A stretch of DNA of 64,000 nt from Candidatus Binatia bacterium. Its GTDB lineage: Bacteria > Desulfobacterota > Binatia > Bin18. Within the stretch, counting starts at the first letter, position 1; each line of letters opens with the position of its first letter. The stretch spans positions 992,001-1,056,000 of the forward strand of contig OY761159.2 of assembly GCA_963664395.2 (NCBI GenBank). Reading direction: 5' to 3'. Below are positions 18 through 64,000 of this stretch, one piece after another. Below the pieces are notes generated by a model. The model was not told the DNA's origin and did not search any database. It saw only the letters and a program-made list of their open reading frames with translations. A program made the translations under genes and the position numbers.

Positions 18-1089
18 CTACGTACAGCGGCAGAGACGTTTCCATAGACGCCAAGACACCCCGGCGAGCGCGAGCAGACCGCACACAGGAAGCGCGTAGA
101 GCGTATACCGATTGGGGTAATGCAGAACGAATAGGGTGAGGTGGGCGCTGATGAAGAGTCCGATTGAAACGCCGGCCAGTGCCCAAGCTTCCCGACCGAT
201 CACACCAGGGAGAAACCGCCAGGCGGCAATCAGCAGACCGCTGAGGAGAAGCGCAACCCAGGGATCAATACCTAAGCCGTTCCGCTTGGAGAAATAGAAG
301 TGCCACGGGTCGGGATTAAAGAAATGACTCCGCCCGCCGGGCCAAAACTTCGGCATGGCATATGCCTCGGCAAAGGTGACTGTGCGGCCAAGCTCGGGCG
401 GAAAGGGACGAAGATAGGCCAGGCCCAGGACCACAAGCGCCAGGCAGCCCAGCCCCACAAGAGCGAGCCGCCGCTCGGGCAGCTGCCGTTCTTGCCAATC
501 TTGCCAAACGCGCAGCGCCAAAACAATCGCAGCACACAGGCCCAGATTTGCAGCTACTCGGGTAGAAGAGAACAGCCAGGAGCAGGGCACACCCGAGCGC
601 GGTCTGACGCTGCGTGAGCAAGGCCCACATGCCGAACAGGAGAATCGGGGTGGCAAAGGAGCGCGGCAGACCGGCGTGCAGGAAGCGTAGTTCCGCCAGA
701 ATGAAAAAGGTCGCTCCGACGACTCCGCCCGGCAGCCCTTGACCAACACGCTGTCCAATAAGAAAGGCGAGTACCGTCCCAGCCGGAACCAGCAGCAATG
801 GGACTGCCTCTGCGAGATGCTGCGGATCAACGACAGGGACAAACAGCCGAAAGAGGAATTGATAGCCATAGGGGGCGAGAATCGGCTGAGAAAAAAACTC
901 CCGAGCGAGATCGTTTGGGAAGAGTGCGGGATCAATCCAGCGATACGTCCACCAGATGTGGTGCGCGAAGTCCTCATCATGCAGATCGGCCCGCAGCAGG
1001 GCGGGCAGAAATTCGCGGACAGCTACAATGCCAGCCAAACACGCGATCCAGCCGAGTGCGAAGCGTCGTCCCTGAGAATTTCCGTCCAT
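18..1089 (-). pseudogene. Polytopic membrane protein (GT-C glycosyltransferase-like), frameshifted near 558
   Basis: ORF 316..1089 gives a hydrophobic N-half (DEDFAHHIWW, GLPRSFA, ending LFYP). ORF 18..980 continues it in another frame (VAANLGL...LHYPNRYT). The break may be a sequencing indel. Confidence 0.6.
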
Positions 1090-1125
1090 ACCCTGCGTTC
1101 ACGAATCGGCAAAGGCGCTTCTCTC

Positions 1126-2493
1126 CTACAGCGGCTCAAAGCGTTTCCTTTTCAGCAGCTTCCCTCTTCCCGCGTTTCCCAACACATGCCCGTTTTCCAC
1201 AATCACCTCACCCCGCGATAGCGTATGCGTCGGCCAGCCCGTCACCTGAAAGCCTTCGTACAGTTCATAGTCTGCGCGCGAATGCATATCACGGTGACGG
1301 ATGGTGGTGTCTTTTTTGGGATCAAAGATCACAATGTCGGCATCCGCTCCAACGGCAATCGTGCCCTTTTGCGGATAGATACCAAACAGCTTGGCCGGGT
1401 TCGTGGCACTCACTTCGACAAAGCGGTTGAGTGAAAGTTTGCCTTGGCCAACGCCTTCGGAGTAGAGCATGGGGATAAGGGTTTCTAGGTTGGACATGCC
1501 GGGCAGCAAGTCATCGACCGTCTTCCCCGCTTTTTTCTGGGCCAGATTCCACCCACAATGATCTGTGGCTACAGTCTGCAAATTATCGGTGCGCAAGCCG
1601 TCCCACATGACCTGCATTTGGGACGCTTCTCTGAGCGGCGGCCAGCCAACGTAGCGTTCAGCGTCCGGCTCTTCAAAGCGTTCGCGGGAGAGATGCAAAT
1701 AGAGGGGCCGTGTTTCGCCGTAGATGATCTGGCCGCGCGCGCGCGCCTGACGAATCGGAGCCAGCGCTTCCTCACATGACAGATGGACCAAGTAGATGGG
1801 GGCTTCGGCGTACTTGGCCATACTGATGGCGCGCTGCACCGCCAACCCTTCGGACTCTCGGGGACGCGAGTCGGGGAAATACTTTGGTCCGAGCTTTCCC
1901 GCTGCCGTCATTTGTTCACACAGATAGCCGATCAAACATTGATCTTCGGCGTGGATATTGGTCAGCGCACCGTGTTTGCCGGCCTGGGCCATAACCTTGA
2001 GATAGTCGACGGCCAGCTCGTCAAAACGCGCCATGCCGATCATGAACAACTTGAAGCTCGTATGGCCTTCAGCAATAACGTCAGCCATTTCATCAATAAT
2101 CTGCTGAGTCGGCTCCAGGATGACAGGATGAATGCCGTAGTCGATGAGGGCTTTGTCTTTCGCTTTCTCCTCCCAGGCTTCAACACTGCCTTGGATCGAT
2201 TGGCCCGCTTCGGGTAAGGCATAATCAACGATGGTTGTCACCCCGCCACACGCCGCCGCAACCGTTCCGGAGTAAAAGTCGTCAACCGAGCGGTGGCCCA
2301 TCAACTCGATGTCAACATGGGTGTGGACATCCACCCCGCCGGGGAAGAGATAGTTGTCTGTCGCGTCGATTTCCCTAGCTGCCGGCCCAAGGCCCTGGCC
2401 GATCTGTTTGACTTTCCCCGCTTCAATCCCCACATCGGCTTGCGCGATTTCTCCAGCAGTCACCACTGTACCGTTGCGAATGACGAGATCCAT
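1126..2493 (-). CDS. hydA: Dihydropyrimidinase / D-hydantoinase
   Basis: Motifs PGGVDVHTH, SFKLFM (carboxylated Lys), IHAED, VHLS, ATDHC and NPAKLFG-YPQKG; 455 aa. Confidence 0.9.
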   Translation of the reverse strand: MDLVIRNGTVVTAGEIAQADVGIEAGKVKQIGQGLGPAAREIDATDNYLFPGGVDVHTHVDIELMGHRSVDDFYSGTVAAACGGVTTIVDYALPEAGQSIQGSVEAWEEKAKDKALIDYGIHPVILEPTQQIIDEMADVIAEGHTSFKLFMIGMARFDELAVDYLKVMAQAGKHGALTNIHAEDQCLIGYLCEQMTAAGKLGPKYFPDSRPRESEGLAVQRAISMAKYAEAPIYLVHLSCEEALAPIRQARARGQIIYGETRPLYLHLSRERFEEPDAERYVGWPPLREASQMQVMWDGLRTDNLQTVATDHCGWNLAQKKAGKTVDDLLPGMSNLETLIPMLYSEGVGQGKLSLNRFVEVSATNPAKLFGIYPQKGTIAVGADADIVIFDPKKDTTIRHRDMHSRADYELYEGFQVTGWPTHTLSRGEVIVENGHVLGNAGRGKLLKRKRFEPL

Positions 2494-2519
2494 GCTGTCC
2501 TCCTTTGTATGCAGATCGA

Positions 2520-3014
2520 CTAACGCTCCACTCTTTCCCCCAGCTTGCGCGCCGCCTCAACCAGCGATTCCACAAGAACGGCGACATCAGGGTCGGCAAT
2601 ACTTGTAATCCCCGTGGGATTGGAAGCGAGTTGGTCCGTCTCTACCAGCCGGTGGGCAATACGCCACTGACCGCTATGTTTCACGAGGCGATCAACATAG
2701 CGGCCCTGGGCAAAAATTTTATATCCACCGGCAGTCGCCAGCGTGGCCAGCATACTGCACTGACCGGTCGCTGCGTCTCCGCTCACCTCGTACAGAAAGT
2801 TGGCCATCATATGTCGGCAGCGGATTTCCTGTACGTGGACATCGGCATAGCCGCGCAGGGCGGCCTGACCACGCATGGCCCGCGGGCCGACCTGAAAAAT
2901 GCCGTCCGGCGTGAAGCAGGCGACCCAGGCTTCGGGGTTGAGGTCGTCAATCGCGTGGGCGTAGCGGGCAAAGAGTTCTTGGATAGCCAGTTTTTCAATC
3001 CATGCGTTGTCCAT
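2520..3014 (-). CDS. SnoaL-like / NTF2-family protein
   Basis: IQELFARYAHAID, FTPDG, RH, GRYVDRLV..WRI pattern; AGGAGG RBS. Confidence 0.85.
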   Translation of the reverse strand: MDNAWIEKLAIQELFARYAHAIDDLNPEAWVACFTPDGIFQVGPRAMRGQAALRGYADVHVQEIRCRHMMANFLYEVSGDAATGQCSMLATLATAGGYKIFAQGRYVDRLVKHSGQWRIAHRLVETDQLASNPTGITSIADPDVAVLVESLVEAARKLGERVER

Positions 3015-3031
3015 CTATTACCTCCTTAGAC

Positions 3032-3055
3032 CATCAGATCATCAGATCATCAGAT
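3032..3055. repeat. Tandem 8-bp repeat (CATCAGAT)x3 between the AKR stop and the SnoaL RBS
   Basis: Read directly from the sequence. Confidence 0.9.
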
Positions 3056-4080
3056 CAGACCATTTTGGCCGGGTTCGGTTGCTCATGCCCCAGGATGGGG
3101 TGGGGCTGATACGGCGCTTCGAGCGTCGCGACTTCCTCATCACTCAGGGCCATATCCACCGCCGCGAAGAGTTCTTCCAGATGATGTATCTTCGTGGCTC
3201 CGATTATGGGCGCTGTAACGCCCGGCGCCTGGAGTACCCAGGCACAGGCAATCTGGGTCGGGGAGACACCCCGCTGTTCGGCGACCTTTTCTACTGTCGC
3301 GGCAATAACGAAATCGTTCTCACGAAAATAATTGTTATGCGCAAACGCATCGGTTTCGGCGCGCTTGGTCAGGGCCGTGCTCCCCTCGGGCTGACGGTTA
3401 CCGGCAAAGAAACCGCGCGCCAGCGGGCTCCACGGAATGAGCGCCACGCCTTGATCGATACACAGCGGATTCATCTCCCGTTCTTCCTCACGATAGATCA
3501 GGTTGTAATGGTTCTGCATGGTCACGAAGCGATGCCACCCTTCTTCCTTGGCCAGAGAGAGCGCCTTGGAAAACTGCCAGGCCGCCATGCTGCTCGCGCC
3601 TACATAGCGTACCTTGCCGCTGCGCACGAGGGAGTCCAGGGCTTCCAGGGTTTCTTCAATCGGAGTGGAAAAATCCCAGCGGTGGATCTGATACAGGTCG
3701 ATATAGTCCATCTTGAGACGGCGCAAAGAATGCTCGCACGCCTCAATAATGTGCTTGCGGCTCAGCCCACCACGGTTTGGCCCGGGGGCCATCTTGCCCC
3801 ATACCTTGGTGGCAACGACGATGTCATCGCGTACGGCCAGCTCCCCCAACCAGTGTCCGGTGATCTCCTCACTCAGACCGATCGAGTAGACGTCGGCGGT
3901 ATCGAAAAAGTTTATGCCGGCTTCGAGGGCCAGGACGAAATGCGCGCGCGCTTCGGCCTGATCCAGCGCCCAGTCGCGTGGCATCGCCCATTCGGGCTGC
4001 GGACCGCCACCATAGCTCATACAGCCGAGACAGAGCCGTGACACGGTCATTCCGGTGTTGCCAAGCTTTGTAAACTGCAT
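3055..4080 (-). CDS. Aldo/keto reductase (YajO/Tas-like)
   Basis: LCLGCMSYG, FDTADVY, ATK, DYIDLYQIHRWD, QNHYNL, PWSPLARG. Confidence 0.92.
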   Translation of the reverse strand: MQFTKLGNTGMTVSRLCLGCMSYGGGPQPEWAMPRDWALDQAEARAHFVLALEAGINFFDTADVYSIGLSEEITGHWLGELAVRDDIVVATKVWGKMAPGPNRGGLSRKHIIEACEHSLRRLKMDYIDLYQIHRWDFSTPIEETLEALDSLVRSGKVRYVGASSMAAWQFSKALSLAKEEGWHRFVTMQNHYNLIYREEEREMNPLCIDQGVALIPWSPLARGFFAGNRQPEGSTALTKRAETDAFAHNNYFRENDFVIAATVEKVAEQRGVSPTQIACAWVLQAPGVTAPIIGATKIHHLEELFAAVDMALSDEEVATLEAPYQPHPILGHEQPNPAKMV

Positions 4081-4095
4081 ACTTCCTCCTCTGCA

Positions 4096-4977
4096 CTATG
4101 GACGCGGTTGTCGTTGGGCGAAGTCTTCAGCAATCTCTGAAAACGTGGCCCAGCTCACTCCAGCATGACTATTGAAGTGTTCAATTAAACGCTCGTGCAT
4201 CATCAGCACCTGCGGACGGCCGCTCACGTCAGGATGAATGGTCATGGTAAACACGGCGTAGTCATATTCACGGTAGATCCAGTCGAACTGATCCCGCCAC
4301 ATTTGCTCAATGTCGCGGGGATTCACAAAGCCATGGCTATTGGGCGATTTTTTGATGAACATCATGGGCGGCAGGTCGTCGAGATACCAGTTGGCCGGAA
4401 TCTCAACCAAGTCGGTTTCTTCGCCACGCATGAGCGGCTTCATCCATTCTTCTGCCGGCTTGGAGTAGTCGATATTCGTCCAGGTATCTCCGACCCGGAC
4501 ATAGTAGGGATGGAAGTCGTTATGCATCAGACTGTGGTCATAGCGAAAGCCGTGCTTCAGCAGGAGTTCGTTGGTCACGTTCGAGAACTCCCACCACGGG
4601 GCCACATAGCCGGACGGACGTGTGCCCGCTTTTTCCTCGATGAGGCCAATTGTTTTGACCAGAACATCTTCCTCTTGCTGCGGCGTCATGGCGATCGGAT
4701 TCTCATGCGAGTAGCCGTGCGCACCGATTTCGTGTCCGGCCTCGACAATCATTTGGGTTTGCTCGGGAAACGTCTCGATTGAGTGACCGGGAATAAACCA
4801 GCTTGTCTTCATGCCATACGTATCAAACAGCTTGAGCAGACGCGGCACGCCCACTTCCCCGGCAAACAGCCCCCGCGAAATATCATCCGGCGAGTCCTCG
4901 CCCCCGTATGATCCCAGCCAGCCGCCGACCGCGTCCACGTCAATACCATACGCCAGCTTAATGTCCTTTGTGGCCAT
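4096..4977 (-). CDS. CE4 polysaccharide deacetylase family, H. pylori PgdA (HP0310)-like
   Basis: [50 protein letters not shown]. Confidence 0.88.
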
Positions 4978-5003
4978 ATCTCCTCCCTTCTTTCGTCCAG
5001 GCT

Positions 5004-6221
5004 TCAGTGTGCTAGCTGGCTCTTATCCAGCACCCGATCCATAACGTATTGCGCCAACTGGTGGATGCATTCTTCCAGATGACAGTAGCGTCCAGGTCGC
5101 GCCATGCGCGAATTCAGCCCCTGCTGAACCGACTCGCACGCCCACATGTCCTGCTTGTTTATGAACTCGAGCCCTTCGACCGCGTGTTCGAGATGTTGTT
5201 CAAAATCCGGCATCTCCATAGCTGCTGGAGGAAAGCACAGCGCCAGGCTCCACGTAATCCGGTCAGCCGCCTGCGGCAATATCTGTCCATAAAACATGCC
5301 GTCGGGTAACGGCGTAAAGAGATGCGTTGGATAGATATTAATGAAGTCACCGCGCTGGCGTTCTTCGGGAGACAAGCTCTCAATCAACGGGAAAGGAGAA
5401 GGTAACCACTCGGTCTTGCCAGGTTCGGCTTCCGTCACCCCCGGTGAATAAAATGTTGCCCCCGGTGTTGCAAAATCCCCCCAGATGATCCCAAACGCGC
5501 CGTTATACGCTGCGTTGGTAATATTGTAAGCCTGAGGCGAAGCATTATGAACGGAATGGACTGGCATCACATCGTGCGGTCCCTTATGCAGACCAAGAAC
5601 GTGGTAGGCCTCCATATAGTTCTCAACCATAATTTTCCAGTTCCAGTTACCCTCATAGACTAATGTTTTGACGGTCCGCATCTCACTGAGATTATAGTGC
5701 TGCAATCGCTCGGAGAGGGGAGCCAGCTTGGGCCCAAGCGGCTGTGCTCGCTGATCAAAATTGACAAAGATGAACCCCTCCCACGTCTCGACCCGTGGCG
5801 AGGCTAATTGACACTGTTTTTTGTCAAAGTTGTCCGTGCGTTGCATCTCGGGGGCGCCAATGAGTTCTCCTTTCAAGGAGTAGGTCCAGCCATGGTAGGG
5901 GCACTCAAAAGTGCGCCGATTACCCCGCCCTTCTACGACTTTCGTTGCGCGATGGCGGCAGACATTCGATAATACCCGGACCTGGTTTTCCTCATCTCGC
6001 ACGACGATCAGTCGTTCTCCTAGTAGGGTCAGCGTAAAAAAATCTCCGGGCTTCTCCACCTGATCTACTCGCCCGACGCACAGCCACTCTTTCAAGAAGA
6101 TATGCTCGACTTCTCGCTCATAAAACTCGCGTGAGGTGTAACAGGGAGGTGGGAGCGTCGAGGCTTGAGACGGCGGCAGCTGGGCTGCCATAAAATCACT
6201 CTTGGTCATTTCCCTAGTCAT
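5004..6221 (-). CDS. Rieske non-heme iron oxygenase alpha subunit
   Basis: NVCRHR and CPYHGW Rieske ligands; [11 protein letters not shown]...H mononuclear Fe site; D in [10 protein letters not shown]. Confidence 0.92.
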
Positions 6222-8922: not shown

Positions 8923-10137
8923 ATGCAGCAGTTCCACACCGAGCGGGAGCAGCGCTTCATTGATCTCGCCGCTACCTTAGCCGACGACTTTGCCACCCGT
9001 GCGGCCCAGCATGATGCAGAAGGCTCGTTTCCCCATGAGAACTACGAGCGGCTGAAAGAGACCGGCTACAGCGTACTGACCATACCTGAAGAGTTGGGCG
9101 GGATGGGCGCCAGCCTGTTGGAACGTATGAAGGCGCAGGAACGTCTGGCCCAAGGCTGCGGTCCGACCGCGCTCGCCATCAATATGCATTTCAATGTGAT
9201 GAGTCTCCTCATCAACCTCTGGCAGAGGTCTCGCACGCCCCCTGTCGAAGCCATGTTGCGCCAGATCGTTGCCGAGCGTCTCATTGTCGGCGGCTCGGGT
9301 TCCGAGCCGGACAACGCCGTTTCCATCCTCCGTCCCCGGACCACGGCAGAACGTGTGGACGGCGGGTGGCGGGTGAGCGGACGCAAGATTTTCAGCACCC
9401 AGTCCATCGCCCTTGATCGTTATTTTGCAGAAGCAACCTGGAAAGAAGGCATCCACGCCGGGCAGCAGACCGGTACGATTATTTCCTTCCTGATTCCCCG
9501 CGACACTCCGGGTTTCATTATTAAAGACGACTGGCATACCATGGGCATGCGTTCAACCGAGTCGAGAAGCACCGAACTCAAAGACGCTTTTGTTCCAGAA
9601 TCCGCCGTCTTCTTGCAACGTCCGGTTTTCGCCCGAGGGGGGATAACCAATCTGTTCCCACGCGCGCCGTTTACCATAGGGAGCGTGTATATCGGCATTG
9701 CAACCGCGGCCCGCAATTTTGTGGTGGAGTTTATGCGGGACCGGCCGCGCTTCCCGCTCACCAAACCGATGAGCCATCTGCCGAGTGTCTACAATAAAGT
9801 CGGCGAGATGGACGCCCTGCTTGAAACGGCCCGCGCCGTTGTGTGGAAAGCCGCTGCCGAGGCTGACCAGGAAACCCCACGCACCTGGCTTCGCAAAAGT
9901 GTGGCCGCCAGGATGGTCGCTATGGAGAATTCCGCTCGCGTGGTTGACCTCGCCATGCGGGCCGTGGGAGGAGCCTCATACTTTAAGCGCTTTCCCTTGG
10001 AACGCTATTATCGCGATGTGCGGGCTGGTCTGTTCCATCCTTTTGACAGCGATGAAACCTTGGAACTCCTCGGTAAGACGGCCTTCGGTATAGCCATGTA
10101 CGATGAAGAGACGATTCGCGCCCTCAAGGAATTGTGA
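8923..10137 (+). CDS. Acyl-CoA dehydrogenase family protein
   Basis: IPEELGGMG, NMH, SEP, GRKIFST, MGMRST, LERYYRDVRAG. Confidence 0.88.
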   Translation: MQQFHTEREQRFIDLAATLADDFATRAAQHDAEGSFPHENYERLKETGYSVLTIPEELGGMGASLLERMKAQERLAQGCGPTALAINMHFNVMSLLINLWQRSRTPPVEAMLRQIVAERLIVGGSGSEPDNAVSILRPRTTAERVDGGWRVSGRKIFSTQSIALDRYFAEATWKEGIHAGQQTGTIISFLIPRDTPGFIIKDDWHTMGMRSTESRSTELKDAFVPESAVFLQRPVFARGGITNLFPRAPFTIGSVYIGIATAARNFVVEFMRDRPRFPLTKPMSHLPSVYNKVGEMDALLETARAVVWKAAAEADQETPRTWLRKSVAARMVAMENSARVVDLAMRAVGGASYFKRFPLERYYRDVRAGLFHPFDSDETLELLGKTAFGIAMYDEETIRALKEL

Positions 10138-10151
10138 GAAAGGAACCCCTC

Positions 10152-10997
10152 ATGTCACATCCAGTTCGCTTTGGCATACAGATCCCACAGCAGAACGGGG
10201 ACTGGAACGATATGCTCAGGCTGTGGCAAGAGGCCGACAGTCTGGGGTTTGATACGGCGTGGGTCTTCGATCATTTTCTACCTATTTTTTCCGACCCAAC
10301 CGGCCCCTGCCTGGAAGGCTGGACTGCCTTATCAGCTTTGGCTATGGCGACAAAAAATGTTCGCCTGGGCGTCATGGTTACGGGTAATACCTACCGCCAC
10401 CCGGCCGTCCTGGCCAAGATGGCCACAACGGTGGATATCATCAGCCACGGACGGCTGATTTTCGGCATTGGCAGCGGCTGGTTTGCGTTGGAGCATGAGG
10501 CGTACGACATTCCCTTTCCCACAACAGGGGAACGGCTGATCAGTCTGGACGAATCCATCACCCTGATTAAGCAACTCTGGACCCAGCAGCGGGCAAACTT
10601 TACCGGACGCCATCACCATCTGCACGATGCGCCCTTTGAGCCCAAACCGCTCCAGCAGCCACACCCGCCGATTCTGGTTGGGGCCGGCGGAGAGAAGGTG
10701 GCTTTGGGCATTGTGGCGCGCCACGCAGACATGTGGAACACCTTCGGCACACCGGAGACCTTCCGGCATAAGATCAAGGTATTGGCCGACCACTGCGCCC
10801 ATATCGGCCGTGACCCGGACGAGATTGAGAAGTCCGTCCTCATCTCGACGACCTTCTCCTCCGATCACAATATGCGCAAGCTGATTGAAGGCTATCTTGC
10901 CGTGGGCGTGACCCATATTATCTTTTCCGTTTCCCCCTCAACCGAGCCACAGCTCTTGCGGCGTTTTGCCCGGAACATCATGGCGACATTCCGCTAA
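10152..10997 (+). CDS. LLM-class putative F420-dependent oxidoreductase
   Basis: WVFDHF, LEGWTALSALA, GNTYRHPAVLAKMATTVD, PKPLQQPHPPI. Confidence 0.88.
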   Translation: MSHPVRFGIQIPQQNGDWNDMLRLWQEADSLGFDTAWVFDHFLPIFSDPTGPCLEGWTALSALAMATKNVRLGVMVTGNTYRHPAVLAKMATTVDIISHGRLIFGIGSGWFALEHEAYDIPFPTTGERLISLDESITLIKQLWTQQRANFTGRHHHLHDAPFEPKPLQQPHPPILVGAGGEKVALGIVARHADMWNTFGTPETFRHKIKVLADHCAHIGRDPDEIEKSVLISTTFSSDHNMRKLIEGYLAVGVTHIIFSVSPSTEPQLLRRFARNIMATFR

Positions 10998-61057: not shown

Positions 61058-61564
61058 TTGGGTATGGATACGACGCAGCCAGACTATTACTACCGCGATT
61101 TCCCCTCTCAGGTCCTGCCGGCTCGGACCCCTTTTACTCGTGTCGGACGAGGGGATGCGGGACAGTTGTTTATTTATGTATCAAATCGCCTCCAACGCTG
61201 GAGTGTCTTACTCGCTAAGGATCGGGTGGACCACATCTATCCGGAAGCACGCAAGCAGATTCCGCCAGGGTTCGCTCATATTTGGTTGTTGGAAAAACGC
61301 TACAGTACGCGCCCGGTCGGTTTCCGGACAAAACATCCCCCGCCGCTGCACCAGCCCGATCAAGGCGACCGCACCCCAGTCACCGGGTTGGGCGAGTCAT
61401 TCGTACTCTTAGCTGAACCGTCTCAAGCTCCTGGTGTGCAAGGTGACGTCCTGTCGTACCACTTGCAGGAAGGGGCCGCTATCGAAGCGGCTGAGGAGTA
61501 CACAAAGCGGCAGCGGCGGCGTGCAGTCGTGGGTTTGCTGGTGTGGGATGATTATTGGTTCTAG
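61058..61564 (+). CDS. Hypothetical protein
   Basis: 168-aa ORF filling the gap between GNAT and ureD; no motif recognised. Confidence 0.5.
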   Translation: MGMDTTQPDYYYRDFPSQVLPARTPFTRVGRGDAGQLFIYVSNRLQRWSVLLAKDRVDHIYPEARKQIPPGFAHIWLLEKRYSTRPVGFRTKHPPPLHQPDQGDRTPVTGLGESFVLLAEPSQAPGVQGDVLSYHLQEGAAIEAAEEYTKRQRRRAVVGLLVWDDYWF

Positions 61565-61566
61565 CT

Positions 61567-62460
61567 CTACAACCAGCCTGATTTGCGGCGGCTTGCCGGT
61601 TCCACACCGGTCAGACACAACCGCACCGCGCTCCAGGCCGCATGAAATGCGTTGCGCAAAGCAACCGCGTCAACGGCGAGCACTCGCAGCCAGGCGCCCG
61701 CATTGTGAGGAAGGGCCGACGCGCCGGCATAGATGTCGGGAATAGGACCGAGCGCCGTTCGTAAGGTCGTCACCAACTCCCCGGCATCATGATCCGACAC
61801 AACCCAGAGCGTCCCTTGCGTCCGGTAGCGCCGCAAGGCCGGTGGCAGACTAGCAACAAACTCGTGTCCGGCAATCTCGAAGCGGTCAATACACAGGCGC
61901 TGACCGTCTGGCCGCTGGACCACTGTTTCATTGAAAAACGAAGCAAACGGACGGGCTAAAGATTCCGGGGATTCCGGGTCGTGCAGGCCAAAGGCATCGC
62001 CGCTGATGGCTGTTGCGCCTTCTTCGACAGTGATGTGGACACAAGAGCGGAAGCGCGCTTGTGGAAATAATGCGAGCGGGTCGGGCAGATACTCAACAAA
62101 ACTGCCTTTCCCCGCCTGGATGGAAACATGCTGCACCGCAGCCCTGCCCTCCTGCATCGAATGGACAACGGTTGCCCCTTGGGTTGTCAGATGGACGCAC
62201 GCCCCGTCCGCAACCGAAAAATCGAGCGCCAAACGATCCTTTTCATACACCCCGCCGGAGATGGATTGCAGGATCAGCGTCGGCATCCCAGGCGGAACAC
62301 GGTCAAAATAAAACGGCTGGGTAAGGGTGAAGGGATAGGTCGTAAATTGTTTGGCAATAAACGTTTGACCGGATGGGTCACGTTTGAAGCTGAGAGAGAC
62401 TTGGGGCGACGTGACGGAGAATGGCTCCGCTGAGAGCCGAGGAGAGGGATCACTACTCAT
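61567..62460 (-). CDS. ureD: Urease accessory protein UreD
   Basis: SGGVYE.D, LTTQGAT, EYLPDP...F, ASALP; follows ureG. Confidence 0.85.
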   Translation of the reverse strand: MSSDPSPRLSAEPFSVTSPQVSLSFKRDPSGQTFIAKQFTTYPFTLTQPFYFDRVPPGMPTLILQSISGGVYEKDRLALDFSVADGACVHLTTQGATVVHSMQEGRAAVQHVSIQAGKGSFVEYLPDPLALFPQARFRSCVHITVEEGATAISGDAFGLHDPESPESLARPFASFFNETVVQRPDGQRLCIDRFEIAGHEFVASLPPALRRYRTQGTLWVVSDHDAGELVTTLRTALGPIPDIYAGASALPHNAGAWLRVLAVDAVALRNAFHAAWSAVRLCLTGVEPASRRKSGWL

Positions 62461-62497
62461 GTCGTGCTGTGGTGCTTCGGGAGGAGCGCCGCTCCGA

Positions 62498-63121
62498 TCA
62501 CTCAGTAAAAAGTACCTGACGAGCAAGATGGGCGACCACCGCATCTATCCCGTCGCCCGTCTTGCAGTTTGTCAGCACCACCGGCTTTCCACCACGCACC
62601 TCGACCGCTTCGGCGACCATCTGTTCCAGATCAACACCAACGTAGGGAGCAAGGTCTATTTTGTTGATCACCAGCAGGTCACATTGAAGGATGCCGGGGC
62701 CACGTTTGCGTGGAATATCTCCGCCGCCGGATACATCAATCACAAACATCCAATAATCAACCAGCTCCAAGGCAAAGGTCGAGGCCAGATTATCCCCACC
62801 GCTTTCGAGCAGAATGATATCCAGATTCTGAAAACATTCTTCCAACTCTTCAGCCGCTTCTATATTCAGCGTCGGGTCTTCACGAATGACCGTGTGCGGA
62901 CAGGCGCCGGCTTCAACCCCACGGACACGCTCCGGCGCAATGAGACGAGACTGACGAATTCGATCAGCGTCTTCTTGGGTCACCAGGTCATTGGTAATAA
63001 CCGCCAACTCTGTATTTTGCGCATGCAGGGCGGGAATCAGGCGTTCAACCAGGGCCGTTTTGCCCGACCCAACCGGCCCGCCAATCCCAACCCGGGCGAC
63101 AGAAGATGAGACGCGCGTCAT
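62498..63121 (-). CDS. ureG: Urease accessory GTPase UreG
   Basis: [34 protein letters not shown]. Confidence 0.95.
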
Positions 63122-63126
63122 AACGG

Positions 63127-64000
63127 TCACCGTAAAAAATACTTTCGGGCGAGCGGGACCTCCACCACAGGGTCGCACGTCATCAGTTCGCCGTCCGCGT
63201 ACACCTCATGCGTGTGCGGATTGACGCTGATGTCCGGACAGGCATCGTTATGCAGCATATCCCTCTTCCCTAATGCGCGCGTATTCCGAATCGGCAACAT
63301 GGGTTTGTGGAGTTCAAGCTTACGCGGAATATCAGCTTCAAGCGCCAAGGAACTGGCGAAGATCGCACTGAGGGCGGACGGCGCGCTGCCCATCGCTCCC
63401 CACATGGGACGTTGGACGATAGGCTCAACCGGAAAGATGCAGCCACTCGCGTCGCCCATGATAGACCAGGCCATAAAGCCGCCTTTCATCACCATCAACG
63501 GCTTGGCGCCAAAAAACGCCGGCCCCCACAACACCATATCCGCCATCTTGCCCGCTTCCAGGGAACCGACGTAATGATCAATGCCCATAGCTCGGGCGGG
63601 GTTGATGGTGTACTTGGCAATATAGCGTTTAATCCGTTCGTTATCGGCGCGCGCCGTCTTTTCCGCGGGGAGACGACCGCGTTGGTCCTTCATTTTACTC
63701 GCCAGCCGCCAGCAATTTGTAATGGTTTCATTCACCCGTCCCATCCCCTGCGTGTCTGCGGCAAACATCGAGATCGCCCCAAGGTCGTGCAAGACATCTT
63801 CCGCGGCCATGGTCTGCGGACGGATACGGCTTTCTGCAAAGGCGACATCTTCCGGCAAGCGCCAGTTCAGCATATGGGCATCCATGGTCATGGGCAGGGC
63901 TTCGTCGAGCGCATTCCGCGAGTAGGGATTGGTTGGATTGGTGGAAGACGGCAGGCAATTGGGTACGCCCGTTACTCGGATGAGATCAGGCGCGTGGCCA
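63127..64000 (-). CDS. ureC: Urease alpha-subunit homologue (5' part outside window), divergent active-site flap
   Basis: [53 protein letters not shown]; frame open to the window end. Confidence 0.9.

Follow-up and report, generated by a model that had tools for sequence, protein, structure and literature searches.

A widespread branch of bacterial ureases with an altered active-site flap and a shortened pocket loop

The window, a stretch of 64,000 nucleotides from a Candidatus Binatia genome, ends inside a six-gene operon, ureE-ureF-ureAB-ureC-ureG-ureD, in which ureAB is a fused gamma/beta gene. Judged by its profile matches, its Ni ligands and its partner and accessory genes, the UreC encoded there is a urease alpha subunit, and its sequence places it in a second class of bacterial ureases, marked by fusion of the gamma and beta subunits, by the gene order E-F-AB-C-G-D and by an Ala167/170 loop 3–4 residues shorter than that of textbook ureases. 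Within this class it belongs to a clade whose flap helix reads E-[GA]-x-P-M-T-M-x-[AC]-H-x, here called the PMTM-flap clade, which is a widespread, uncharacterised branch of ureases. The altered flap most likely belongs to a working urease rather than to a new enzyme and, on balance, we lean towards the prediction that the PMTM-flap enzyme is a functional Ni urease isoenzyme.

Urease is a textbook nickel enzyme, and its mobile Cys-His-His (CHH) flap is the main point of attack for mechanistic work and for inhibitors, both the medical ones and those applied to fertilised soils. Because this large clade retains the metal centre and the catalytic His but has the rest of the first flap helix replaced and a substrate-contacting loop shortened, it amounts to a natural experiment on flap function. 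If its members are ordinary ureases, most of them lack the Cys targeted by thiol-directed inhibitors, which bears on inhibitor design, and ureC counts from soils and oceans would include a second urea sink under different regulation. Otherwise, many genes of Bradyrhizobium, Paracoccus, Mycobacterium, Rhodococcus and uncultured Binatia would be wrongly annotated as 'urease', and a so far unseen way of scavenging nitrogen would await discovery.

The operon at the window edge

The features within the window are as follows.

63127..64000, minus strand: 3' part of ureC (last 290 codons and stop), an open-ended frame (63127-63999) that runs off the window
63868..63906, minus strand: flap motif, residues 311-323 of the full-length protein P0001, with the catalytic His retained
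63736..63759, minus strand: ADTQGMGR, containing the Ni-ligand Asp361 and Met365
63421..63459, minus strand: variant of the canonical MGDPNASIPTPQP segment
62498..63121, minus strand: ureG (nickel-insertion GTPase), 207 aa from a likely ATG at 63121; the longest ORF is 62498-63178
61567..62460, minus strand: ureD, 297 aa from a likely ATG at 62460; the longest ORF starts at 62544

The full ureC has 569 codons and extends past the window end to the equivalent of position 64836 (2127-3836 of the extracted locus L003). Its product, P0001, matches TIGR01792 with 758.7 bits (cut-off 680) and NF009686 with 813.6 bits (cut-off 354), and its best PDB matches are canonical ureases, the alpha subunit of Sporosarcina pasteurii aligning with E = 5e-192. 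UreG matches TIGR00101 with 246.2 bits (cut-off 204.2; genome match at G000:C1:1054510-1055094, where G000 is the genome of the window), and UreD matches Pfam UreD with 124.6 bits (cut-off 27), its orthologues in relatives having 297–298 codons. Beyond the window end, UreAB matches NF009671 with 324.7 bits (cut-off 243), and upstream of ureAB lie ureE (NF009752, 179.2 bits, cut-off 162) and ureF (Pfam UreF, 110.3 bits). Three studies, with four RNA-seq libraries between them, supplied RNA contigs that match the operon at 95–100% identity but leave stretches of it uncovered (e.g. L003 1036-1242); strand, ends and expression level are not readable from these contigs.

The original prediction, made from the window alone, placed ureG and then ureD directly after ureC, and the profile matches on the minus strand bear this out. 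It also noted no ureE or ureF between them; this is correct for the interval between ureC and ureD but misleading, for retrieval of the complete ureC with its upstream context, as had been proposed, found both genes upstream, outside the window, together with ureAB. The more general expectation of a urease-fold enzyme with nickel-maturation genes of its own agrees with the profiles, the Ni ligands and the operon.

Active-site residues, phylogeny and operon class

All three motifs originally quoted, the flap, ADTQGMGR and the third segment, were located on the minus strand at the coordinates listed above, and the frame at the window edge reads as quoted. In the flap of the window UreC, compared with the canonical one, His is replaced by Ala, Asp by Pro, Val by Asp, Cys by Ala and the second His by Met. 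The contrast that had been drawn with the canonical motifs is sound for the flap, which is truly altered, but not for the other two segments, since SDSQGMGR and a replaced MGDxNASIPTPQP are also found in CHH-flap ureases. The Gly at the Ala366 position occurs in CHH-flap relatives as well as in the PMTM-flap clade, and the MGDPNASIPTPQP segment is changed in these relatives too (MGDSAASLMTCEP), so that change is not specific to the flap variant. Two of the three motifs proposed as marks of an altered enzyme are thus common to relatives with the canonical Cys-His-His flap.

Columns of the alignment were counted for 79 members of the clade against 14 + 47 canonical-flap sequences and 4 others. 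Residues H139, H141, K218, H220, E221, D222, H247, G279, H321, R337, D361 and M365 are retained in 79/79 clade members and H273 in 78/79. These include all the Ni ligands of P0001 (H139, H141, the carbamylated Lys K218, H247, H273 and D361), in agreement with the original claim that the Ni-ligand Asp and the flap His are kept, and the equivalents of Klebsiella aerogenes His219, Asp221, flap His320, Arg336 and Met364 (H220, D222, H321, R337 and M365), which are invariant in the clade. In the ADTQGMGR segment, D, Q, G and M are likewise invariant (79/79). The roles assigned here to the substrate-binding and catalytic residues, and to the Ala167/170 carbonyl that hydrogen-bonds urea, are those given in the review PMC7433671.

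The flap itself is different. The canonical E-H-L-D-M-x-M-V-C-H-H is absent from the clade, and of its Cys-His-His triplet only the catalytic His is left; in all 79 members Gly or Ala stands in place of His312 and Pro in place of Asp314. At the flap Cys position 63 members have Ala, 15 still have Cys and 1 has Gly, and the second flap His position is never His (M31, A10, Q10, I9, L8 and others), a free variation that looks like lost constraint rather than a new contact. In K. aerogenes urease, Cys319 and His321 are reportedly non-essential on mutagenesis. The Ala167/170 loop, canonically TGPATGTNATTCTPGP, reads GGTMGP----HFDISCAGP in the clade and is 4 residues shorter, against 3 in the CHH-flap sister clade. 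Fixed changes in the pocket comprise E137, A140, loop F168, I251, G/A313, P315, M343 and F358, with no His at 322; E137, two residues before the first His ligand, replaces an otherwise invariant Asp, and A140 sits between two His ligands, near the metal site. The active-site surroundings are remodelled clade-wide, as the originally suggested altered pocket would have it. AlphaFold2 modelled the variant UreC with pLDDT 84.3 and pTM 0.91 but with pLDDT <50 at 301-323 and 333-335, that is, in the flap; the canonical UreC of a congener, run as a control (pLDDT 79.1), was equally poor at 297-333, so the models are uninformative on the rebuilt flap.

In a tree of 144 sequences the PMTM-flap clade is monophyletic (79/79, support 0.998) on a long stem branch (0.259); 13 CHH-flap ureases with the same type of operon form its sister group (joint support 1.0). 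The alignment and tree that had been proposed as a check accordingly place the variant flap in a separate clade whose sister group has the canonical flap. A DNA-pattern scan found the flap variant in at least 114 species genomes from Pseudomonadota, Actinomycetota, Binatia and other phyla, a figure that rests on one pattern and misses PMAM variants such as that of Rhizobium tumorigenes pRt932. The operon type extends through the clade: all 51 clade loci give a single fused ureAB match, where most canonical loci give two separate ones, and the order E-F-AB-C-G-D is found in the genome of the window and in other clade loci. Eight congeners with fetched loci have no ureE or ureG at the locus. There is no solved structure for the PMTM-flap clade or its sister clade among the PDB matches, and literature searches outside the subscription journals found no paper on the flap variant or on an enzyme of the operon class.

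Gene neighbourhoods, copy number and the competing readings

If the PMTM-flap enzyme is a working urease, urea would be hydrolysed by the standard bridging-hydroxide mechanism. The Gly/Ala and Pro found in the flap helix, the usual lack of Cys and the missing second His would then affect lid dynamics, kinetics or sensitivity to thiol-reactive inhibitors and leave the chemistry as it is. Its role would be nitrogen scavenging, from urea made inside the cell or imported together with small amides. The competing reading that survives best is a Ni amidohydrolase that in the cell acts not on free urea but on a small substituted urea, ureide, carbamate or amide, whose substituent would fit into space opened by the short loop and by a flap that is smaller or more flexible; we regard this as possible but doubtful. 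Its boldest form is a new Ni amidohydrolase activity on the urease scaffold, acting under nitrogen starvation beside amidases and an amide/urea-type transporter on a substrate poorly handled by canonical ureases, with the Gly/Pro-broken flap helix and short loop as specificity determinants, and this we would put forward more tentatively still. The clade-specific changes fixed around the metal site and the long stem branch speak for a substrate other than urea, whereas the side-chain residues that bind and activate urea are all unchanged and the variable second-His position gives no evident new specific contact.

The neighbouring genes point both ways. Since longest-ORF calling gave antisense shadow ORFs in these high-GC loci, it was replaced by a codon-position GC score and then by tblastn maps against reference proteins. 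In 24 of the 51 clade loci the gene immediately upstream, on the same strand, encodes an amidase: 18 of these are of the Rhodococcus-amidase type (NF005565, 756–841 bits, cut-off 545; PDB 3a1k, E = 8e-144), 5 are paired AtzE-like and 1 is a weak match. No such amidase was found beside 20 canonical ureC neighbourhoods from the same genomes. The substrate-binding proteins encoded beside variant operons score 197–352 bits against UrtA cut-offs of ~494 and are ~23–32% identical to the UrtA-like proteins adjoining canonical ureC, a divergence that also favours a non-urea substrate. The ratio of 24/51 to 0/20 looked specific enough to be considered as proof of such a substrate, but was downgraded because amidase, AmiC/ANTAR and Urt-like genes also lie beside CHH-flap relatives (Ancylobacter pB, Aminobacter pAA01 and Acinetobacter). 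CHH-flap operons of this class adjoin either urate-catabolism genes and urtA, or AmiC/ANTAR and urtBCDE, and the operon class thus looks like a real urea module. The linkage to amidases and transporters is a trait of the operon class and not of the flap variant. Moreover, at least three unrelated amidase families (amidase-signature, acetamidase/formamidase and asparaginase-domain) occupy the same position, which fits a module scavenging amides plus urea better than one shared two-step pathway, and 17 of the 51 loci have no amidase and, mostly, no transporter adjoining. The organism of the window has no amidase/ABC module next to its operon; the amidases nearby belong to another subfamily and lie on the other strand or several genes off, in non-operonic positions, which again counts against a non-urea substrate. 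A scan of 7 clade loci (137 kb) at Rfam gathering thresholds found no riboswitch. The scan returned one tRNA and a 5_ureB_sRNA match antisense to Bradyrhizobium ureC (40.1 bits, gathering score 40), which is most likely due to likeness to coding sequence.

A full-length CHH-flap ureC is also present in 49 of 50 variant-carrying genomes, 12 of which have both other urease types, and at least two urease-alpha matches were obtained in 72 of 80 variant genomes. The variant is thus usually an extra enzyme, a coexistence that could suggest a separate substrate. A rule that there is always a second copy seemed to hold at 50/50 genomes with at least two matches but was broken by the genome of the window and by two closed, single-contig congeners (G114 and G174), in all three of which the variant is the sole urease alpha, an observation against a non-urea substrate. 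A single match was also found in 8 of 30 further assemblies, all MAGs or SAGs of 1.5–4.4 Mb and of unknown completeness. The search for a canonical urease in the genome of the window, proposed at the outset, found none of full length: the canonical locus is reduced to a 55-aa ureC end. Elsewhere in the genus the canonical ureC carries an in-frame TAG (G141/G048) or is interrupted by a 4.4-kb element that carries an integrase-core gene (G017), and in each case the variant is intact. The three variant-only genomes of the genus have no bona fide UrtA, which is present in two congeners with canonical ureC. The presence of the variant is thus not coupled to high-affinity urea uptake, a further point for a substrate other than urea. 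Having lost canonical ureC and urtABCDE, the genome of the window has no urease-type enzyme besides that of the variant operon.

Comparison of the variant ureC with three congeners gave dN/dS of 0.047–0.060; the gene is under strong purifying selection. G114 and G174 each retain one ureG elsewhere in the genome. Retention of UreG in relatives without a canonical urease, purifying selection and the conserved dinickel site all speak for a working urease. A point to the contrary is from Mycolicibacterium smegmatis, where, according to PMC4222082, msmeg_1084-1090, upstream of a second urease cluster, are induced 4.6–52 fold on nitrogen starvation and urea supports no growth.

A urease using a metal other than nickel, or tuned to low nickel, by analogy with the iron urease UreA2B2 that backs up the nickel enzyme of Helicobacter mustelae, is improbable. 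The usual coexistence with a canonical urease would suit such a backup, as would the Asp to Glu change before the first His ligand, Glu in every clade member and Asp in all others, and the H. mustelae 'urease subunit beta 2' (PDB 3qga) is among the matches; it is, however, no closer (E = 2.4e-184) than the nickel ureases (5e-192). The iron urease is not known to need accessory genes, whereas the operon of the window carries ureE, ureF, ureG and ureD, and the relatives without canonical ureC keep ureG. A catalytically dead or decaying paralogue, or a non-enzymatic role, might be read from the lost flap Cys and second His and the shortened substrate-contacting loop but is very improbable given the low dN/dS, catalytic residues that are invariant across several phyla, the retained accessory genes and a genus in which it is the canonical copy that decays.

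Comparison with known systems

The canonical Ni ureases of S. pasteurii and K. aerogenes (PDB 4ceu and 1fwj, among others) share with the variant their fold, length and end-to-end alignment (E = 5e-192 to 1e-186), the Ni ligands, the carbamylated Lys, His219/Asp221, flap His320, Arg336, Met364 and the accessory proteins; the canonical copies in the same genomes are ~50–57% identical to the variant UreC. They differ in the flap helix, E-H-L-D-M-L-M-V-C-H-H in the canonical enzymes, in the Ala167/170 loop, which is 4 residues shorter in the variant, and in gene order, D-A-B-C-(E)-F-G as against E-F-AB-C-G-D with gamma and beta fused.

Closer are the CHH-flap ureases of the same class, known from annotation only, in Methylobacterium radiotolerans pMRAD01, Aminobacter aminovorans pAA01 and Ancylobacter polymorphus pB, which are 60–63% identical to P0001; literature searches found no biochemical study of them. 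They resemble the variant in the fused gamma/beta subunit, the order E-F-AB-C-G-D, the shortened loop, the SDSQGMGR-type Asp motif and the changed MGD...EP segment, but retain flap His312, Asp314, Cys319 and His321 (K. aerogenes numbering) as well as D137, L251 and I343.

Helicobacter UreA/UreB also has gamma and beta fused, and its profile NF010592 matches the UreAB of the window with 235.8 bits, below the cut-off of 353. Its alpha-type subunit is no closer to the variant than those of other canonical ureases (E ~1e-186), and Helicobacter urease has the canonical CHH flap.

The second urease cluster of M. smegmatis, ureEFABCGD, has the same gene order as the variant, and the genes upstream of it, a peptide/nickel-type ABC transporter, a GatA-like amidase, a small hypothetical gene and an amidase, match those of the PMTM-flap loci of Mycolicibacterium vaccae, Mycobacterium and Rhodococcus. 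From this gene order and these neighbours, the UreC of the M. smegmatis cluster would be expected to carry the PMTM flap.

The variant urease operon and its active site

The window is G000:C1:992001-1056000. The urease genes at its right edge were followed to their full extent in a 17-kb stretch of the same contig (L003), where their order is ureE-ureF-ureAB-ureC-ureG-ureD:

ureE, upstream of ureC beyond the window, same strand; NF009752, 179.2 bits (cut-off 162)
ureF, upstream of ureC beyond the window, same strand; Pfam UreF, 110.3 bits
ureAB, fused gamma/beta subunit, upstream of ureC beyond the window, same strand; NF009671, 324.7 bits (cut-off 243)
ureC, last 290 codons, 63127-64000, minus strand; from the ORF listing
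ureG, 62498-63121 from the likely ATG, minus strand; TIGR00101, 246.2 bits (cut-off 204.2)
ureD, 61567-62460, minus strand; Pfam UreD, 124.6 bits

The profile scores confirm ureG and ureD after ureC, as originally predicted. The reported absence of ureE and ureF holds for the gene run within the window, but both genes lie upstream of ureAB in the same operon and seemed to be missing because they are beyond the window end. Family scans of the ureC fragment match Amidohydro_1 and urease-alpha models. The full gene has 569 codons, and its product, P0001, scores above the curated urease-alpha cut-offs (TIGR01792, 758.7 against 680; NF009686, 813.6 against 354) and aligns end to end with the ureases of S. 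pasteurii, jack bean, K. aerogenes and H. pylori (E 5e-192 to 1e-186).

Other reading frames lie nearby. A 100-aa ORF directly upstream of ureE (L003 5749-6051, equivalent to 66749-67051 and outside the window) aligns with a LysE translocator profile over its final third alone (positions 115-190 of 193), at a score under the cut-off, and seems to be what is left of a gene. A gene for a HicB-like antitoxin (Pfam PF15919, 65.7 bits) is likewise beyond the window, at L003 7560-7946; immediately before it on the same strand is a 69-aa ORF, and the two may form a HicAB pair. Within the window, a 168-aa ORF (61058-61564, plus strand) converges on the end of ureD; its first part lies under RNA-library contigs, and a Pfam search at E up to 0.01 gave it no match.

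Residues of P0001 were assigned from two alignments, a HMMER one to the urease of S. pasteurii and one of 144 urease alphas. All the Ni ligands are present (H139, H141, K218, H247, H273 and D361), as are H220, E221, D222, G279, the flap H321, R337 and M365, substrate-binding or catalytic residues whose roles are described in a review (PMC7433671). The Ni-ligand Asp and the first flap His are therefore kept, as the original prediction held, and the motif peptides it quoted are exact (63868-63906, 63736-63759 and 63421-63459, minus strand). The first flap helix is altered relative to the canonical E-H-L-D-M-L-M-V-C-H-H, and the Ala167/170 loop is four residues shorter, GGTMGP----HFDISCAGP against the canonical GGGTGPATGTNATTCTPGP. 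According to the same review, a backbone carbonyl of Ala167/170 in this loop hydrogen-bonds urea. Thus two features often treated as universal in ureases, the flap Cys-His-His (CHH) and the Ala167/170 loop, do not hold here. In predicted structures the flap has a pLDDT below 50 in the variant UreC and equally in a canonical control.

A clade of flap-variant ureases

Among the best 120 database relatives, eight at 78-95% identity have the same flap and a much larger set at 63-70% identity carries E-G-[VL]-P-M-T-M-L-[AC]-H-x; the named relatives with a variant flap are all annotated 'urease subunit alpha'. A degenerate DNA pattern for NPTNP-x7-E-[GA]-x-PMTM-xx-H, run on one-genome-per-species collections, matched at least 114 loci. 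Carriers among the matches listed include Binatia MAGs, Bradyrhizobium, Rhodopseudomonas, Paracoccus, Labrys, Acidocella, Skermanella and Geminicoccus; Mycobacterium/Mycolicibacterium, Rhodococcus, Frankia and Kineococcus; and MAGs labelled Gemmatimonadota, Methylomirabilota and Planctomycetota.

In a FastTree phylogeny (LG+gamma, 144 sequences, one truncated row, L019, left out), the 79 flap-variant sequences are monophyletic with a support of 0.998 and a stem length of 0.259. Their sister group, with a joint support of 1.0, consists of 13 sequences with the canonical CHH flap DEHLDM[IT]MVCHHLNP, which nevertheless share the SDSQGMGR motif, a changed MGD...EP segment and a shortened loop (by three residues). 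Three motifs had been proposed as changed in the window's protein; the flap change is real, but the other two predate it, because the CHH-flap sister group has both. Ten features are fixed in at least 90% of the variant clade and nearly absent elsewhere: A47, E137, A140, F168, V217, I251, P315, M343, F358 and the loop deletion. Position 313 is G or A in the clade, against His in the 61 CHH-flap sequences. At the flap Cys position, 63 of the 79 have Ala, 15 have Cys and one has Gly, whereas the place of the second His, 322, varies freely (M31, A10, Q10, I9, L8, others).

Other flaps occur in further urease-alpha paralogues (...DMLITCHNL..., ...HMIMTSHGL.../...HMIMSVHGL... and ...DMAMTSHHL..., at L188, L201, L202 and L181 of G013, G045, G033 and G023, respectively), hosted by a Burkholderiaceae MAG, a Mycobacterium MAG, Kineococcus and Paracoccus, some with up to four urease alphas. 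The flap DEGLDMTM[SA]CHLLRYD is found in a group of urease alphas of alphaproteobacterial and marine origin (P0044-P0078 and others); it retains the Cys and catalytic His and has Leu for the second His. An Rfam match to 5_ureB_sRNA (40.1 bits, gathering score 40) antisense to a Bradyrhizobium variant ureC (L130 9785-10075, minus strand) probably reflects coding-sequence likeness to the Helicobacter gene rather than an sRNA.

Canonical copies, accessory genes and expression

Fifty of the 80 fetched genomes were searched first, and every other copy was fetched and classified. All 50 have two to four urease-alpha matches, and 49 have a full-length CHH-flap ureC; the classical type, MLMVCHHLD, is found in 47 and the sister type in 14. 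In the fiftieth, an alphaproteobacterial MAG (G017), the flap-variant ureC is intact and the canonical one is split in two by a 4.4-kb insert (L203, G017:C3:174700-181100, 950-5329) encoding an integrase-core (rve) protein and an AAA_25 ATPase. Of the remaining 30, mostly fragmentary MAGs, 22 have at least two matches and eight (1.5-4.4 Mb, completeness not known) a single one.

Whether the window's genome, G000, also has a canonical urease had been put forward as a check; no full copy exists, only a 42-residue remnant match beside the variant. At the canonical locus (L204, G000:C1:2153000-2172999, about 9494-10877) a 55-aa ureC end lies on one strand and a partial ureB, ureG and ureD adjoin it on the other. 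This locus is a remnant. Compared with the congener G008, ~9.65 kb, comprising urtABCDE, the start of the beta-subunit gene and ureC except its last 45 codons, is replaced by ~6 kb of different DNA, in which there is an efflux-pump-like ORF. Urease alpha was found in 25 of 101 sampled genomes of the class, a tally that includes the unpublished G167, a genome that enters no other result. Within the window's genus, the closed, single-contig G114 and G174 (100% and 98% complete) have the variant only; G132, G141 and G158 have both types, G150 has the canonical only, and no urease alpha was found in G087 or G166. The canonical ureC of G141 (L158; C1:982419-984113 of G048, the same genome) contains a single in-frame TAG and may be a pseudogene or reflect a sequencing error. 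Scoring 579 and 578 bits against a cut-off of 492.75, a bona fide UrtA was found only in two congeners that hold canonical ureC, and at this cut-off in none of the three variant-only genomes of the genus.

The variant locus of congeners is ureF-ureAB-ureC-ureD only (8/8 fetched loci, for example L118 in G008, L255 in G114 and L256 in G174), and a single ureG lies elsewhere in the four congeners searched (G114, G174, G158 and G141). G000 is unusual in its genus in having ureE and ureG within the operon, as do most carriers outside it. That G114 and G174 keep ureG with the variant alone argues that the variant enzyme needs this GTPase; in G158 the lone ureG adjoins the canonical ureC, which suggests that the maturation proteins are common to both ureases.

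Nei-Gojobori dN/dS between G000 and three congeners is 0.047-0.060 for ureC, 0.084-0.129 for ureAB, 0.191-0.199 for ureF and 0.214-0.259 for ureD. Four RNA-seq libraries, drawn from three studies, gave contigs 95-100% identical to L003 1-6200 that cover 27, 29, 11 and 7 of 30 bins, and one contig bridges the ureAB-ureC junction, which is consistent with transcription of the operon or with DNA carry-over. Near-identical DNA to this stretch is present in runs labelled sponge metagenome (X10, X20 and X21), X10 with 0.78 of sampled words and X20, an RNA library, with three pieces of 151-240 nt showing 0-3 differences.

Amidase neighbours and function

We mapped 51 variant-clade loci by tblastn (G000 and the 50 searched genomes). 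In 24, ureE or ureF is immediately preceded by a co-oriented amidase gene. Eighteen of these amidases are of the Rhodococcus N-771 type (NF005565, 756-841 bits, cut-off 545; PDB 3a1k, E 8e-144), and ahead of them are five genes for an amide/urea-family ABC transporter; an ABM-domain protein comes after the amidase in 9/18 loci. The binding protein of this transporter scores 197-352 bits on urea models (cut-off ~494) and matches solved urea-binding proteins and AmiC. In five actinobacterial loci a 65-aa ORF separates two AtzE-like amidases, and a peptide/nickel-type ABC transporter is also present; one of the 24 has a weak amidase match only. In one further locus transporter and amidase are downstream instead, and 17 of the 51 maps contain no amidase. 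In Binatia, including G000, nearby amidases are of another subfamily (NF005899-like, below cut-off), on the opposite strand or several genes off. Twenty canonical ureC neighbourhoods (~9 kb each side) from genomes with an amidase at the variant locus, taken as a control, contained none; their order is urtABCDE-ureD-A-B-C-(E)F-G.

The linkage is a trait of the operon class (fused ureAB, order E-F-AB-C-G-D), because it is also present in CHH-flap members. AmiC/ANTAR and urtBCDE occur both on Ancylobacter pB, together with an aliphatic amidase, and on Aminobacter pAA01, together with HupE/UreJ; Acinetobacter has urtA and an ANTAR gene, and M. radiotolerans pMRAD01 urate-catabolism genes and urtA. 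The amidase position is filled by enzymes from several unrelated families. We therefore rejected the amidase linkage as settling the substrate.

Profile match, ligands, catalytic residues, partner subunits and maturation genes all make the predicted product a member of the urease alpha family. We lean, with some reserve, towards a functional nickel isoenzyme of urease whose lid behaves differently. A different physiological substrate, to which the rebuilt flap and the amidase neighbours might point, seems less likely, with the substrate-binding residues retained and the same module beside CHH-flap enzymes. An enzyme that uses another metal or is dead is improbable, given the nickel-maturation genes in the operon and the low dN/dS of ureC, respectively. 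On the simplest reading, the isoenzyme would serve in a module for nitrogen scavenging in which urea and small amides are taken up and each is split by a hydrolase of its own.

The literature outside subscription journals yielded no account of the flap-variant clade, of where it occurs or of its tendency to accompany canonical ureases. Annotated plasmids offer parallels: Pleomorphomonas pSM30-1 (variant flap) carries AmiC-like binding proteins, an ABC transporter, an amidase and an ABM protein, and Rhizobium tumorigenes pRt932 (PMAM flap) an acetamidase/formamidase gene and an asparaginase-domain gene. The operon type itself is already in print for M. smegmatis, which, according to PMC4222082, has two urease clusters, ureABCFG and ureEFABCGD; the enzyme of the latter would be expected to have the PMTM flap. 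The same paper reports that msmeg_1084-1090, encoding a peptide-opine-nickel ABC transporter, a GatA-like amidase, a hypothetical gene and an amidase, are induced 4.6-52 fold by nitrogen starvation, and the arrangement so described is that of the variant locus of Mycolicibacterium vaccae (L132).
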